This document shows, one piece after another, positions 4,969 through 56,916 of a DNA stretch of 56,916 bases. This stretch comes from Clostridia bacterium (GTDB taxonomy: Bacteria; Bacillota; Clostridia; TANB77; CAG-508), in contig JAAWFD010000005.1 of NCBI GenBank assembly GCA_022794615.1, forward strand, positions 1 through 56,916, written 5' to 3'. The position numbers were made by a program, and so were the translations under genes. A model generated the notes under the pieces. It was not told where the DNA came from, made no database searches, and saw only the letters and a list, made by a program, of their open reading frames with translations. The first letter of the stretch is position 1, and every line of letters starts with the position of its first letter.

Positions 4969-6303
4969 TTAAATTTCAAATTCTTTTTCTCCTTTTTCTC
5001 TTGCTATCATTCTTATTGGTGTTCCTTCTAAACCAAATTCTTTTCTTATTTGATTTATTAGATATCTTTCATATGAAAAATGAAATAATTCTTTATTGTT
5101 TACAAATATTACAAATGTTGGTGGCTTCGTAGATACTTGTGTTCCATATAGTATTTTTAATCTCTTTCCTTTATCTGTTGGTGGCTGTACTATTGCAATT
5201 GCTTCATTTATTACTTGATTTAATACTGATGTTGATATTCTTATCGCATTTTGTTCTGCTACATGGTTTATTAGTTCAAATAGTTTCTCTACTCTTTGTC
5301 CTGTTTTTGCTGATATAAATAGTATTGGTGCATATGATAAATATGCTAGTTTATTATATATTTCTTTTTTATATTTTTCTAATGTTCCTGTTTCTTTTTC
5401 ATATTCGTCCCATTTATTTACTACAATTATTACACCTTTTCCTGCTTCGTGTGCTTCACCTGCTATTTTTGCGTCTTGGTCTGTTACTCCTTCTAATGCA
5501 TCAATTAGCATTAAGCATACATCTGCTCTTTCTATTGCTAGAAGTGTTCTCATTATACTAAATTTTTCTATCGATTCTGTTACTTTGCTTTTTTTCCTTA
5601 TTCCTGCTGTATCTATAAATACATATTTCCCTTTATCATTACTAAATTCGGAATCTATCGCGTCTCTTGTTGTTCCTGCTATATCACTTACTATGTTTCT
5701 ATTGTTTCCTAATATTTTGTTTATTAGTGATGATTTTCCTACATTTGGTTTTCCTATTACTGCTACTTTTATTTGCTTGTTTTCTTCTTCTGTTTCTTCT
5801 TTCTCTGGGAAATGTTCATATATTGCGTCTAATACATCTCCTATTCCTGTTGCATTTGTTGATGATATTAGATATGGCTCTCCTATTCCCAAATTATAAA
5901 ATTCATATGAATCTTGCTTTGCTTTTTCATAGTTGTCTGCTTTATTGCATACTAGAACTATTGGTTTTTTTGATTTTTTTAGCATTAATGATATTTCTTC
6001 ATCTGCTGGTGTTATTCCTTGTCTTATATCTGTTAAAAATATTATTACATCTGCCATTTCTATTGCTATTTGTGCTTGTTCTCTCATCTGTGATATTATT
6101 ATATCCTCTGATTTTGGTTCTATTCCTGCTGTGTCTATTATTGTGAATTCTCTTCCTCTCCAGTTTGTTTTTGCATATATCCTATCTCTTGTTACTCCTG
6201 GCGTGTCTTCTACAATTGATATTCTCGTTCCTACTATATAATTGAAAAATGTTGATTTTCCTACATTCGGCTTTCCTATTATCGCTACTATTGGTTCTGA
6301 CAT
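4969..6303 (-). CDS. der: Ribosome biogenesis GTPase Der (EngA)
   Basis: Two GTPase domains (GKPNVGKS twice; DTAG; NKAD/NKWD) plus KH-like tail. Confidence 0.98.
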   Translation of the reverse strand: MSEPIVAIIGKPNVGKSTFFNYIVGTRISIVEDTPGVTRDRIYAKTNWRGREFTIIDTAGIEPKSEDIIISQMREQAQIAIEMADVIIFLTDIRQGITPADEEISLMLKKSKKPIVLVCNKADNYEKAKQDSYEFYNLGIGEPYLISSTNATGIGDVLDAIYEHFPEKEETEEENKQIKVAVIGKPNVGKSSLINKILGNNRNIVSDIAGTTRDAIDSEFSNDKGKYVFIDTAGIRKKSKVTESIEKFSIMRTLLAIERADVCLMLIDALEGVTDQDAKIAGEAHEAGKGVIIVVNKWDEYEKETGTLEKYKKEIYNKLAYLSYAPILFISAKTGQRVEKLFELINHVAEQNAIRISTSVLNQVINEAIAIVQPPTDKGKRLKILYGTQVSTKPPTFVIFVNNKELFHFSYERYLINQIRKEFGLEGTPIRMIAREKGEKEFEI

Positions 6304-6319
6304 CTTTTTTTCTCCTTGT

Positions 6320-7264
6320 CTATTTTGTTTTGAATAAATCCCCTAATGGTCTTGATTCATTTAATCTTCTTATTGTTTCTGCAAATAGTGGTGCTATTGA
6401 TATTACTTTTATTTTGTCTATTTGCTTCTCTTCTGTTAATGGTATAGTATCTGTTATTACTAATTCTTGTATTGGTGAATCTTGTATTCTTTGTACTGCA
6501 TTTGCTGCTAATACCCCATGTGTACATCCTGCATATATTTCTTTTGCTCCTTCTCTAGCTAAAATATTTGCTGTTTCTATTAATGAGCCCCCTGTTTCTA
6601 CTTCATCATCAAATATTATTGCTTGTTTTCCTTTTACTGTTCCTATTACATTTGTTGCTATTGCTCTATCATCATTTCCTTCTCTTCTTTTATCTATTAA
6701 TGCTATTGGACATCCAAAGTATTCTGAATATTTATATGCTTTTTTTGAACTTCCTGCATCTGTTGCTACTATTACCATATTTTGTAAATTCTTCTTTTTA
6801 AAGTAATCTTGTAATATTCCTTGTGCTGTTAGTCTGTCACAATTTATATTAAAATATGCTTGTATTGCTGGATTGTGTAAATCACAACTTATTACTCTTG
6901 TTGCTCCTGCTGCTTCTAATAGTTGTGCCATTAATTTGGCTGTTACTGGTATTCGTGGTTGGTCTTTTTTGTCTGAACGAGAATATATGTAATATGGTAA
7001 TACTACATTGATATTTTTTGCTGAGGCTCTTTTTAGTGCATCTATTGTTATTAATAATTCCATTACTCTTTCATTTACTGGTGGTTGTGTTGTTTGTACT
7101 AAATATACATCTTGCCCTCTTACTGTTTCTCCTATCTGTACAAATGTGTTGTCGTTTTTGAATTTTATCGTATTTATTTTTCCCATTTCTATTTTTAGAT
7201 GATTGCATATTTTTTGTGTAAATGTTTCTGCACTTTTGCAAGCAAATATTTTGATATTTTCCAT
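6320..7264 (-). CDS. prs: Ribose-phosphate pyrophosphokinase
   Basis: 'LKRASA..INVVLPYY.YSRSDKK..PR.P.TAKL', 'DLH', PRPP-loop variant 'DDEVETGGS', 'THGVL'. Confidence 0.92.
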   Translation of the reverse strand: MENIKIFACKSAETFTQKICNHLKIEMGKINTIKFKNDNTFVQIGETVRGQDVYLVQTTQPPVNERVMELLITIDALKRASAKNINVVLPYYIYSRSDKKDQPRIPVTAKLMAQLLEAAGATRVISCDLHNPAIQAYFNINCDRLTAQGILQDYFKKKNLQNMVIVATDAGSSKKAYKYSEYFGCPIALIDKRREGNDDRAIATNVIGTVKGKQAIIFDDEVETGGSLIETANILAREGAKEIYAGCTHGVLAANAVQRIQDSPIQELVITDTIPLTEEKQIDKIKVISIAPLFAETIRRLNESRPLGDLFKTK

Positions 7265-7472
7265 ATTATACCTCTTTTCTTATTTTTATATTTCTAGATT
7301 TCGTTTTTGCTTCTTTTTCGATATTATTCTATAATATGTTCTTATAAATTGCAAGATTATTATTTGTTTTTATTTAGAAATTAATAAATTTCAAAAATTA
7401 TCGTAATAGTGTTCCTTTTTTATTGTTTTTTTAATATAATACAAATATCTTATTATAAAGGAGATGGAATAT

Positions 7473-8456
7473 ATGAAAACATATAAATTAGCTATTGTTG
7501 GTGCTACTGGATTAGTAGGAAGAACAGTTTTAAAAGTTTTAGAAGAAAAAAATCTGCCTAATTTTGAATACACAATGTTTTGTTCAAAAAAATCAGCAGG
7601 TCAAGAATTAACTTTACTAGGTAAAAAGTATATTACACAAGAATTAACTCATTCATCTTTTGATGAAAAATTTGATTTTGCAATCTTTTCTGCTGGCGGA
7701 GATGTATCAAAGGAATTTGCTCCTATTGCAGCTTCTAAAGGATGTATTGTTATAGATAATAGTAATGCTTTTAGAATGGATAAAGATGTTCCTTTGGTTG
7801 TGCCTGAGGTAAATCCTGAAAAAATCAAAGAAAATAAAGGCATTATTGCAAATCCAAACTGTTCTACAATTCAAGCAGTAGTAGCTCTAAAACCTTTACA
7901 TGATGCATATAAAATAAGAAGAATTGTTTATTCTACATATCAGGCTGTTTCAGGTGCTGGTATAAAAGGTCTTGAGGATTTAGAAAATGGTTCAAAAGGA
8001 TTACTTCCTACAAAATTTCCACATCCTATATATAATAATTGCTTACCACATATAGATGTATTTATGGATGATGGTTATACTAAAGAAGAACATAAAATGA
8101 TTAATGAAACTAGAAAAATTTTAAACTGCCCTGATTTAAAAATCACTGCTACTACTGTAAGAGTTCCTGTTCAGAACTGTCATAGTGAAGTAATAAATAT
8201 TGAATTTGAAAATGAATTTGAATTACAAAATGTTTTTGATTTATTTAAAAATTTTCCTGGTATTGTTCTTGTTGATGATGTAAAAAATAACGAATATCCA
8301 TTAGCTACGAATAGTGATGGTCATGATGAAGTTTTTGTTGGAAGAATTAGGCGTGATTATAGTGTACAAAATGGTTTAAATATTTGGGTTGTTGCTGACA
8401 ATCTTAGAAAAGGTGCTGCAAGTAATGCTATTCAAATAATGGAGAAGATGATTTAA
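7473..8456 (+). CDS. asd: Aspartate-semialdehyde dehydrogenase
   Basis: 'GATGLVG', 'IIANPNCST', 'STYQAVSGAG', 'WVVADNLRKGAASNA'; AAGGAG spacing favours ATG 7473. Confidence 0.97.
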   Translation: MKTYKLAIVGATGLVGRTVLKVLEEKNLPNFEYTMFCSKKSAGQELTLLGKKYITQELTHSSFDEKFDFAIFSAGGDVSKEFAPIAASKGCIVIDNSNAFRMDKDVPLVVPEVNPEKIKENKGIIANPNCSTIQAVVALKPLHDAYKIRRIVYSTYQAVSGAGIKGLEDLENGSKGLLPTKFPHPIYNNCLPHIDVFMDDGYTKEEHKMINETRKILNCPDLKITATTVRVPVQNCHSEVINIEFENEFELQNVFDLFKNFPGIVLVDDVKNNEYPLATNSDGHDEVFVGRIRRDYSVQNGLNIWVVADNLRKGAASNAIQIMEKMI

Positions 8457-55990: not shown

Positions 55991-56437
55991 ATGCGTAAAA
56001 TATTTAAAGAATTTAAGGATTTTGCTTTAAGAGGTAATGTTTTGGATTTAGCCGTTGGGGTTATTATTGGTTCTGCTTTTCAAAATATTGTTAAGTCTTT
56101 GACTACTAACATTATTTCTCCTATTTTAGGATGCTTTAGTGAAGTTGATTTTTCTTCTTTCTCTTTGAAAATTGGTAATCTTAATCTTACTTATGGTGCT
56201 TTTATTACAGATGTTATTAATTTTATTATTATGGCTTTTATAGTTTTCTTGATTGTAAAGTTTATGAATAAATTGGCTAATTTAGGTAAAAAAGAGGCAG
56301 TTCCTGTTGTTAAGGAAGCTACTACTAAAATTTGCCCTCATTGTTTTAGTGAGATAAATATTAAGGCTGATAGATGCCCTTTTTGTACTTCTGAATTAGT
56401 TATAGAAGAAAATGAGTCAGTTGAACAGGAAAAATAA
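55991..56437 (+). CDS. mscL: Large-conductance mechanosensitive channel with C-terminal zinc ribbon
   Basis: 'FKDFALRGNVLDLAVGVIIG.AF', 'YGAFI..VINF', then CPHC...CPFC; GGAG RBS favours ATG 55991. Confidence 0.95.
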   Translation: MRKIFKEFKDFALRGNVLDLAVGVIIGSAFQNIVKSLTTNIISPILGCFSEVDFSSFSLKIGNLNLTYGAFITDVINFIIMAFIVFLIVKFMNKLANLGKKEAVPVVKEATTKICPHCFSEINIKADRCPFCTSELVIEENESVEQEK

Positions 56438-56451
56438 TTTATTATAATATG

Positions 56452-56760
56452 CACAAGAAAGAGCGGGGTGATATATCCCCGCCCTTTGGTTATCTCTGCA
56501 TGGCTGTCTCTACTTTGAAGGCCGCACCCTATCAAGTGATTCAGCCCTATCGCAACCCCAGCCAGTGCCGCTTCAGATTTGCGATTTTCTCTGCATTACT
56601 GTAACAGTGTGTCCTCTAATACCCATTTTTACTCCTTTCTATTATTCTACTAGAATTTTCGACATTGTTTCAAAATGTTATAAAGTGGGACTCCGAATAA
56701 TGCACATGCACAAATCCTCCTTGCTTTTATTCAAAAGCTCTGTGTTAGCAACTTTTGTTG
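56452..56760 (-). ncRNA. Candidate ~305-nt structured RNA / sORF transcript of unknown family
   Basis: Bounded by a consensus promoter and a terminator; no ORF over 17 aa recognised; multiple hairpins and a GC-rich 3' domain. Confidence 0.6.
56458..56487. terminator. GC-rich bidirectional terminator
   Basis: AAAGAGCGGGG / CCCCGCCCTTT arms; U-rich tail on the minus strand. Confidence 0.8.
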
Positions 56761-56766
56761 TCTGTA

Positions 56767-56795
56767 ATTATATTATGTTTATTTCAAAATGTCAA
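56767..56795 (-). promoter_or_regulatory. Consensus sigma-A promoter for the candidate RNA
   Basis: TTGACA (56795-56790), 17 bp, TATAAT (56772-56767). Confidence 0.8.
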
Positions 56796-56916
56796 TAATT
56801 TTTTAAAAGTTTATTTAATTTATATGAAAGAAATGTGATAATGTCTTAAGTAAAGAAATGAGAAAATGTCCCAACTAAAAAATATTTGTTCTCTTAAATG
56901 ATATAATTAAAAATAT

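Follow-up and report, generated by a model that had tools for sequence, protein, structure and literature searches.

Tiny open reading frames in a candidate clade-restricted small mRNA behind mscL of uncultured Clostridia

SR1/SR1P, SR7/SR7P and RNAIII/delta-haemolysin are dual-function small RNAs (sRNAs) of Firmicutes (PMC3526287, PMC12612679, PMC10730256). The element described here lies in a window of 56,916 nucleotides, which is the whole stretch analysed from the metagenome-assembled genome (MAG) of a Clostridia bacterium (GenBank assembly GCA_022794615.1, contig JAAWFD010000005.1), and it occupies the minus strand behind mscL at positions 56452–56795. It resembles the SR1/SR1P type in its layout, namely a predicted transcript of 200–500 nt with its own promoter and intrinsic terminator, a small open reading frame (ORF) preceded by a Shine–Dalgarno (SD) site, and an untranslated remainder, but it differs in having no sequence or Rfam kinship and a narrow spread. 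Its ORFs comprise 5–46 codons, as against 26–39 for delta-haemolysin, SR1P and SR7P, and they are arranged in tandem and conserved at the N-terminus only. By analogy, the closest described kind appears to be a dual-function or small ORF (sORF)-bearing sRNA such as SR1/SR1P, without homology. Comparison of related loci suggests, with a probability of about 60%, that the element is a clade-restricted small mRNA with tiny ORFs, perhaps with a dual function, and not a structured non-coding RNA (ncRNA).

ApdA, ApdP, ApcA and SecM are ribosome arrest peptides of the RAPP/RGPP/RAGP type (PMC12992588, PMC10951233, PMC7897499), and the RAPP-type motif is defined as R-[AG]-P-P (or RAPG/RAGP) with its last residue in the A site (PMC12992588). 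Like these peptides, the element has a small ORF in which a short Arg-small-Pro/Ser core is conserved and the remainder variable, but this core is without the fourth Pro/Gly, is N- and not C-terminal, and has no regulated downstream gene, which leaves a resemblance only. The observed cores depart from the R-[AG]-P-P (or RAPG/RAGP) definition, and the element is not assigned to the RAPP type. Another system for comparison is thrL, a transcription attenuator with a Thr/Ile-rich leader peptide. Attenuators share with the element a promoter, a tiny Thr-rich ORF, GC-rich hairpins and a terminator, and the crossing pairings of the element resemble alternative attenuator helices; unlike an attenuator, the element has no structural gene past its terminator and no antiterminator, and its Thr runs are not conserved across lineages. 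The DapZ and MicL types are 3′-UTR-embedded sRNAs with their own promoters, proteobacterial and Hfq-dependent. The element is similar to them in following immediately on the stop codon that ends the upstream operon, having the operon terminator in common and carrying its own promoter, but this promoter lies past the stop codon and not within the upstream ORF, and the ORFs of the element are preceded by SD sites.

If the small-mRNA reading is true, the element would be another unannotated micro-ORF gene in an uncultured small-genome lineage of gut Clostridia, of a kind overlooked by gene callers and outside the coverage of Rfam, and it would illustrate that a promoter, GC-rich hairpins and a terminator in an AT-rich genome need not mean a structured RNA. 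What stands out is that a peptide motif is retained in ORFs of 5–9 codons and tandemly duplicated, and that the part downstream is replaced between strains with 99% identical flanks. The practical importance is modest because the element is limited to a handful of species.

Promoter, terminator and tiny ORFs

The element begins with a sigma-A type promoter, TTGACA-17-TATAAT, at 56767–56795 (minus strand), which matches the consensus at 12/12 positions and from which transcription would start near 56760. An intrinsic terminator common to the convergent mscL, GGGCGGGG-AUAUAUCA-CCCCGCUC plus UCUUUCUUGUG, closes it at 56452–56484 (minus strand), about 305 nt from the promoter; it is formed by a G+C-rich GGGCGGGG/CCCCGCUC hairpin and then UCUUUCUU, with a U-rich tail that stops 15–18 nt short of the mscL stop codon. 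The perfect promoter, the strong terminator, the length of about 305 nt, the unusually GC-rich 3′ part and the lack of a known RNA family had all been put forward in an earlier note drawn up from the letters of the window alone, and its description, borne out on each of these points, was accurate at this level.

Relatives of the element were reached via MscL homologues (80–100% identity) and the syntenic contigs encoding them, which gave at least seven lineages: A (the window and L065–69, MscL identity 100%), A′ (L070–77, 97%), A″ (L086–88, 93%), C (L089–91, 87%), B (L078–82, 83%), D (L092, 82%) and E (L110–111, 80%). The BLASTN search proposed earlier for this purpose gave nothing usable among 60 GTDB relatives, where the element found chance matches only, to AT-rich sequence resembling promoters or ribosome-binding sites. 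TTGACA and the 17-nt spacing are present in all 7 recovered lineages, the −10 box being TATAAT in 6 of them and TATACT in L092 (lineage D), with an extended TG in 2. A hairpin, of differing sequence, stands at the terminator position in every recovered lineage, and in L065 a single terminator-like site was found from the epimerase stop codon to mscL. An internal promoter-like site, TTGAAA-18-TAGAAT (56644–56673, minus strand, 10/12 match), lies 5′ of the second ORF and is probably incidental because it is kept neither in L070 nor in L086. The full transcript is predicted to be more stable than shuffled sequences (z = −3.67). Judged by its letters, the element would be a discrete small transcription unit with its own promoter and terminator.

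Two sORFs, neither of them in the earlier note, are read from the sequence of this unit. The first, at 56678–56722 (minus strand), consists of the SD site SD1 AAGGAGGA (56722–56715), a spacing of N7, and sORF1 of 9 codons from ATG 56707 to TAA 56678, encoding MCIIRSPTL. The second, at 56573–56637 (minus strand), consists of SD2 AAGGAG (56637–56632), a spacing of N5, and sORF2 of 17 codons from ATG 56626 to TGA 56573, encoding MGIRGHTVTVMQRKSQI. sORF1 is the positional orthologue of the sole or first ORF in every other lineage, which is MCIIRSPTVIK in A′, MHITRCRSPSVVQ in A″, MKCIRGSTTSITNANAFQSATSAR in B, MKSIRGSTSFTNANVVLMTSAR in C, MGKTRGPTTALCTFLNANLSTMAAASVAICQQNS in D and MIQIRGSNAMFSQNNMAKFVRQPVSADLNVAQRARKADSIMMASVT in E. 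Second ORFs paralogous to sORF2 are found in A′ (L070, MGITRGPTTTTEMQ) and A″ (L086, MYKARGHTTTMKCATMMQI), with synonymous third-position changes in their R-G-x-T block; the second ORF of B and C encodes MIRAP, and lineages D and E have none. ORF lengths range from 5 to 46 codons over the 7 lineages, and the main-ORF peptides from 14 to 46 amino acids.

The ORFs have a common beginning, since 12/12 start with M-x(0-5)-[ITAC]-R-[GSA]-[PSH], mostly followed by Thr, as in MGIRGHTVTV.., MGITRGPTTTT.., MYKARGHTTT.., MKCIRGSTTS.., MKSIRGSTS.., MGKTRGPTT.. and MIQIRGSN.., the cores seen being RGPT, RSPT, RSPS, RGST, RGSN, RGHT and RAP-stop. Each counted ORF has GGAGG, AGGAG or GGGAG 4–10 nt 5′ of its ATG, and these SD sites are kept ahead of every ORF despite changing surroundings. 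In the MAG, GGAGG-N4-10-ATG occurs at 327 sites, 75% of them ahead of ORFs of at least 50 amino acids, and stands ahead of an ORF below 50 amino acids only about once per 25 kb.

Coding-type substitutions are seen in the conserved block. Of the pairwise differences in the R-G-x-T block, 12 fall on the first codon position, 16 on the second and 39 on the third; both AGA and CGG serve as Arg codons in the motif, and GGA, GGC and GGT as Gly codons; and the one single-nucleotide difference between the window and L065 in sORF1 is synonymous (CCC to CCA). Lineages B and C differ by indels of whole codons within the ORF and of 2 nt downstream of the stop. The MIRAP mini-ORF AUGAUAAGAGCACCGUAA (MIRAP-stop), which lies in the 3′ domain, is 100% conserved between L078 and L089 (lineages B and C), and its own SD (GGGAG or GGAGG) is retained next to adjoining bases that differ. 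Beyond about codon 8 the lineages become unalignable even where flanks are 99.3% or 93–95% identical. The coding signal ends at the stop codon, because the reading frame of a GGCAGCGGCC block common to lineages C and D differs between the two, and the B/C indels past the stop are of 2 nt. We conclude from these comparisons that selection probably acts on the N-terminal residues of the sORFs, which would be translated by ribosomes.

The proposed mechanism is that of a small mRNA that would be strongly and independently transcribed and would also end the PBP1-epimerase operon. Its constrained core would consist of the sigma-A promoter, a 5′ stem-loop, a strong SD and one or two tiny ORFs; the stem-loop may stabilise the RNA or serve as a binding site, and the first 5–10 residues of the ORFs would carry [ITAC]-R-[GSA]-[PSH], usually then Thr. 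The output may be a short hydrophilic peptide or may lie in the translation of its N-terminus as such. Downstream, the G/A-rich stretch would serve as a fast-evolving spacer closing in a bidirectional terminator, which would also stop the strong promoter from antisense transcription into mscL. Dual-function RNA, one of three options in the earlier note beside structured ncRNA and protein-sponging RNA, comes closest to this picture, having the promoter and terminator expected of a discrete small transcript and comparative support for a translated sORF; the conserved 5′ loop may in addition act at the level of RNA.

Several observations weigh against the small-mRNA reading. The ORFs are extremely short (5–46 codons) with almost unconstrained C-terminal parts, and the codon changes between B and C comprise about 6 non-synonymous and 2 synonymous ones. 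The invariant AGAGG of the motif could be an RNA-level, SD-like signal, and the 5′ UTR is conserved above the peptide, which would also fit an RNA-level function. Nor does the role of a spacer account for the 3′ region staying G/A-rich although the genome is AT-rich. No family in Pfam or NCBIfam was found for any of the peptides, a word search of 5.8 billion proteins gave no peptide homologue, and HMMER on 1.84 billion representatives gave one match, a spurious helical repeat in a SIR2-STAND protein.

The 5′ leader and readings at the level of RNA and ribosome

The leader forms a stem-loop AAAAGUU GCUAACACAG AGCUUUU at 56733–56756 (minus strand), whose 7 pairs are kept in 8 sequences. All 56/56 cells of the AAAAGUU/RRCUUUU helix are standard pairs, and 3 pairs vary on one side only (U-A/U-G or A-U/G-U). 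The block AAAAGUUGCUAAYACAGRRCUUUU is nearly invariant, and no other nucleotide block of the element is as well conserved. An alternative hairpin, GCUUUU GAAU AAAAGC, at 56723–56738 (minus strand), excludes this stem-loop and abuts SD1; in the form (G/A)CUUUU-RAAU-AAAAG(C/U) it has 91.7% of its cells paired and one compensatory G-C to A-U pair in 3/8 sequences, and it is missing from lineage E (L110). SD, 5′ UTR and promoter are 88–95% identical, the conservation of the 5′ UTR is at least that of the flanking genes, and a strong SD followed by ATG stands downstream of the leader in every recovered lineage. In L070 the leader motif AAAAGUUGCUA was also seen to recur near the 3′ end of its allele (..CAUAAAAAGUUGCUAUAAGCC..).

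A string of five short 5′ hairpins had been proposed earlier, all of which are literally present in the window, but only GCUUUU/AAAAGC is kept in relatives, where it competes with the better conserved AAAAGUU/RRCUUUU. CAAC/GUUG is retained in part of the lineages only, and ACAUU/AAUGU, AUUCU/AGAAU and ACUG/CAGU are private to the lineage of the window, so that they lose their standing as meaningful hairpins.

Conservation in the element is highest in the 5′ UTR, above that of the peptide, and a base-pairing sRNA acting in trans, or a genuine dual-function RNA, has to be weighed, in which the invariant 10-nt loop GCUAAYACAG would be the seed for pairing with target mRNAs and the mini-ORFs secondary or stabilising only. 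The self-contained unit, bounded by a promoter and a terminator of its own, and the layout like that of dual-function sRNAs such as SR1 (PMC3526287; review PMC12612679) speak for it, but the complement of the loop occurs in the window at chance (4 matches against 1.9 expected), the only exact match being the element itself, and the loop is altered in lineages D and E (AGUGCAG, ACCACAG), with no target traced. We regard this explanation as unlikely.

A speculative and rather improbable extension is that the element serves as a free-standing translation sensor, whose N-terminus (x-R-G/S/A-P/S/H-T or MIRAP-stop) would engage the exit tunnel or the peptidyl-transferase centre, so that ribosome occupancy of the tandem mini-ORFs would set how stable or available a highly expressed RNA is, and the conserved 5′ loop would act in trans. 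If true, this would be a new arrest-like leader with no cis-regulated gene and a downstream part varying between near-identical strains.

A related explanation gives the mini-ORFs a role in cis: an N-terminal R-[GSA]-[PSH] would halt or slow ribosomes, by RAPP/RAGP-type arrest or by Pro-stop termination pausing (MIRAP-stop), and this would adjust what becomes of the transcript or how much antisense read-through reaches mscL. The conservation of only the first 5–10 codons, ORFs of down to 5–9 codons and their tandem duplicates form a pattern typical of leader peptides and not of folded proteins, the motif is loosely like the R-A/G-P arrest core (PMC12992588, PMC10951233), and the element is convergent with mscL. 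The explanation is nevertheless improbable, since the fourth Pro/Gly of RAPP, RGPP and RAPG is missing, the motif is N-terminal and lacks a tunnel segment ahead of it, neither a co-oriented gene downstream nor an antiterminator is present, and the stop codons lie 40–55 nt from the terminator. In every lineage the gene past the terminator is mscL, in convergent orientation, with no co-oriented gene downstream, and an antiterminator is lacking because inspection of 7 sequences showed no C-rich segment upstream that could pair with the G-rich 5′ arm of the terminator; a leader-peptide attenuator was rejected on the same two counts.

The GC-rich 3′ region and known RNA classes

The G/A-rich, T-poor 3′ region (56485–56572, minus strand) corresponds to the GC-rich pseudoknot domain of the earlier note. 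GC content rises to 57% per 100 nt in the 3′ half of the element, as against 27.7% for the MAG, and this half is the most GC-rich non-coding, non-tRNA stretch found there, the other inspected top GC islands being coding or a chimeric high-GC contig end. Across all lineages the region has 26–33% G and 14–23% T. The 3′ region is also the least conserved part. Its identity between the window and L070 is about 45%, the range being 37–57% across 56440–56700, beside a flank that is 99.3% identical over 3.8 kb; a recombined tract of 88–95% identity spans the 3′ half of mscL and the epimerase gene. A recombination tract of about 2.3 kb (93–95%) was likewise seen between L065 and L070 inside otherwise 100% identical DNA, at about 5200–7500 of each locus, and further unalignable spots were noted at about 7021 (the PBP1 C-terminus, 923 vs 908 amino acids) and about 9841 (upstream of PBP1).

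Some islands of similarity persist. The window and L086 (lineages A and A″) share only a 28-nt island GGCUGAAUCACUUG..GGGUGCGGCC, a hairpin block that is 93% conserved; lineages B and C have two 3′ blocks in common, one of which is the MIRAP ORF; and a small GGC-N4-GCY hairpin, noticed by inspection, recurs close to the stop codon of four lineages (A, B, C and D). The GGCAGCGGCC block of C and D stands in different frames, and therefore its conservation, such as exists, would be at the level of RNA. No other copies of the GC-rich part were found in the genome, and an origin from a repeat or a miniature inverted-repeat transposable element was rejected, as no further genomic copy exists. Read-through or recoding into the GC-rich part (selenocysteine, +1 frameshift) was also rejected, because the stop is TGA, TAA or TAG by lineage and the downstream frames differ. 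A selenoprotein mRNA was set aside as well, there being no conserved in-frame UGA; tRNA-Sec was not found in the incomplete MAG.

These data bear on the explanation that the element is a novel structured ncRNA acting via a GC-rich pseudoknotted 3′ domain of riboswitch-, ribozyme- or raiA-like kind. The z-score of the whole transcript, the first place of the 3′ half among the non-coding GC islands of the MAG, the 93% conserved hairpin block shared with L086 and the recurrent GGC-N4-GCY hairpin all speak for it. On the other side, the 3′ domain taken without the terminator is mostly not thermodynamically unusual, with z-scores of −1.67 (window), −0.52, −2.44, +1.87, +0.68, −2.76 and +0.66 in the 7 lineages, so that it is no more stable than shuffled sequences in 5/7 of them. 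RNAalifold gave no common fold except the terminator and one invariant hairpin, and the crossing pairings AUCGCAA/UUGCGAU and UGAAG..GCAC/GUGC..CUUCA, two of those on which the earlier suggestion of a pseudoknot had rested, are lost in L086, the closest lineage with a homologous 3′ domain. With the domain swapped between near-identical strains (about 45% identity despite 99.3% flanks) and no Rfam match in five lineages, the proposal of a pseudoknotted structured ncRNA is not supported, and we consider this explanation very unlikely.

Searches for known RNA classes were negative throughout. With cmscan against Rfam 15 at the gathering score, 0 matches were obtained in the whole window; a permissive run on 567 bases around the element gave chance-level matches only (E = 1.6–7 and 11–19 bits, against cut-offs of 40–100 bits), among which raiA, RNase P, the signal recognition particle RNA, 6S RNA and tmRNA were absent. 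The loose resemblance to raiA remarked on earlier thus drew no raiA match even at E ≤ 10. The Rfam search of four other lineages gave nothing relevant, and that of 20 GC islands of the MAG gave no match. 6S RNA was rejected, as a genuine 6S RNA (75–77 bits, above the cut-off) is found elsewhere in all three carrier genomes; that of G000 lies at C14:36170–36364 (RF00013, 75 bits). For tmRNA or a tRNA-like RNA, a scan with ARAGORN -m was negative for tmRNA on every contig of the MAG, that of the window among them, and the ORFs of the element have an SD and an ATG start, unlike a tmRNA tag frame; the MAG has only 18 tRNAs and no tmRNA, which is consistent with its incompleteness (87%). A sponge for CsrA/RsmA, the CsrB-type version of the protein-sponging idea, was abandoned, since PF02599 was not found in the three GTDB carrier genomes G000, G635 and G702 (two of them 97% complete) by a search that was positive in control genomes, and the GGA motifs of the element are mostly inside SD sites or the ORF motif.

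Locus, distribution and remaining explanations

In 7/7 lineages the element stands between the PBP1-epimerase operon on the same strand, with the NAD-epimerase gene last, and the convergent mscL, and the wider flanks comprise PBP1, epimerase, mscL and argS. The epimerase stop codon is about 20 nt upstream of the −35 box (L065, L070, L078), and the element would also be the 3′ end of the PBP1-epimerase operon because no terminator precedes its promoter. In the strain of the window, a contig-end repeat at 56822–56916 replaces the epimerase 3′ end of other strains; the contig closes with these 95 bases, of which 100% identical copies lie at the ends of two other contigs of the MAG, C27 (C27:18401–18495) and C10 (C10:4–98). 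The end of this repeat or insertion sequence (IS) lies about 25 nt upstream of the −35 box, where L065 and L070 have the epimerase 3′ end. In the lineage D strain L094, a DDE_Tnp_1 transposase gene (674–2167) stands right behind mscL, at the place of the element in L092. The spacer between mscL and epimerase looks like an insertion hot spot.

The distribution is narrow. A covariance model of the leader and ORF start found the element in 3/338 genus genomes (G000, G635 and G702), its weak matches being coding regions or an HSP20 leader, and among 400 family genomes no sampled genome of another genus carries it. A scan for the conserved-leader pattern returned just the two species already known GTDB-wide, and two chance matches only, IS256-like leaders, in JGI metagenome contigs. 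The element had no match in phage and plasmid collections, and blastn and nhmmer next to mscL in 29 loci of relatives gave nothing; some relatives (MscL 80–84% identical over 88–95% of its length) have bofA or other genes at this place and no element. On these searches, the element is apparently restricted to a few species of one uncultured genus.

Such a narrow spread (3/338 genus genomes), the fast turnover past codon ~8 and the IS or repeat insertions in or beside the element in two strains would also fit a functionless decaying remnant at an insertion hot spot that keeps its promoter and the operon terminator by chance. The (near-)perfect promoter in 7 lineages, the conserved 5′ UTR, the maintained SDs and the synonymous-biased changes in the motif argue against decay, which makes this explanation highly improbable. 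A signalling or allelic peptide gene with a conserved x-R-G-x-T, for which Phr-type pentapeptides such as ERGMT offer the comparison, is suggested by the short motif, the hypervariable remainder and the discrete strain-specific alleles swapped by recombination between otherwise identical strains, but it is very improbable, as the peptide lacks a signal sequence and any hydrophobic segment for export, the neighbouring genes include no receptor, transporter or processing function, the motif is N-terminal and not C-terminal as in Phr precursors, and the hypervariability reaches non-coding sequence and therefore need not reflect selection on a peptide.

The convergent neighbour mscL (55991–56437, plus strand) encodes 148 amino acids, with Pfam PF01741 in its homologues and a CxxC...CxxC C-terminal tail. 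This C-terminus (56335–56437 of the window) carries CPHC...CPFC and looks like a zinc ribbon, and in some homologues the MscL domain is followed by another Pfam domain, PF24460. Elsewhere in the genome, a contig end (G000:C38:46574–47341) with 72% GC in the 27% GC MAG has the look of coding sequence from a contaminant or of a chimeric join.

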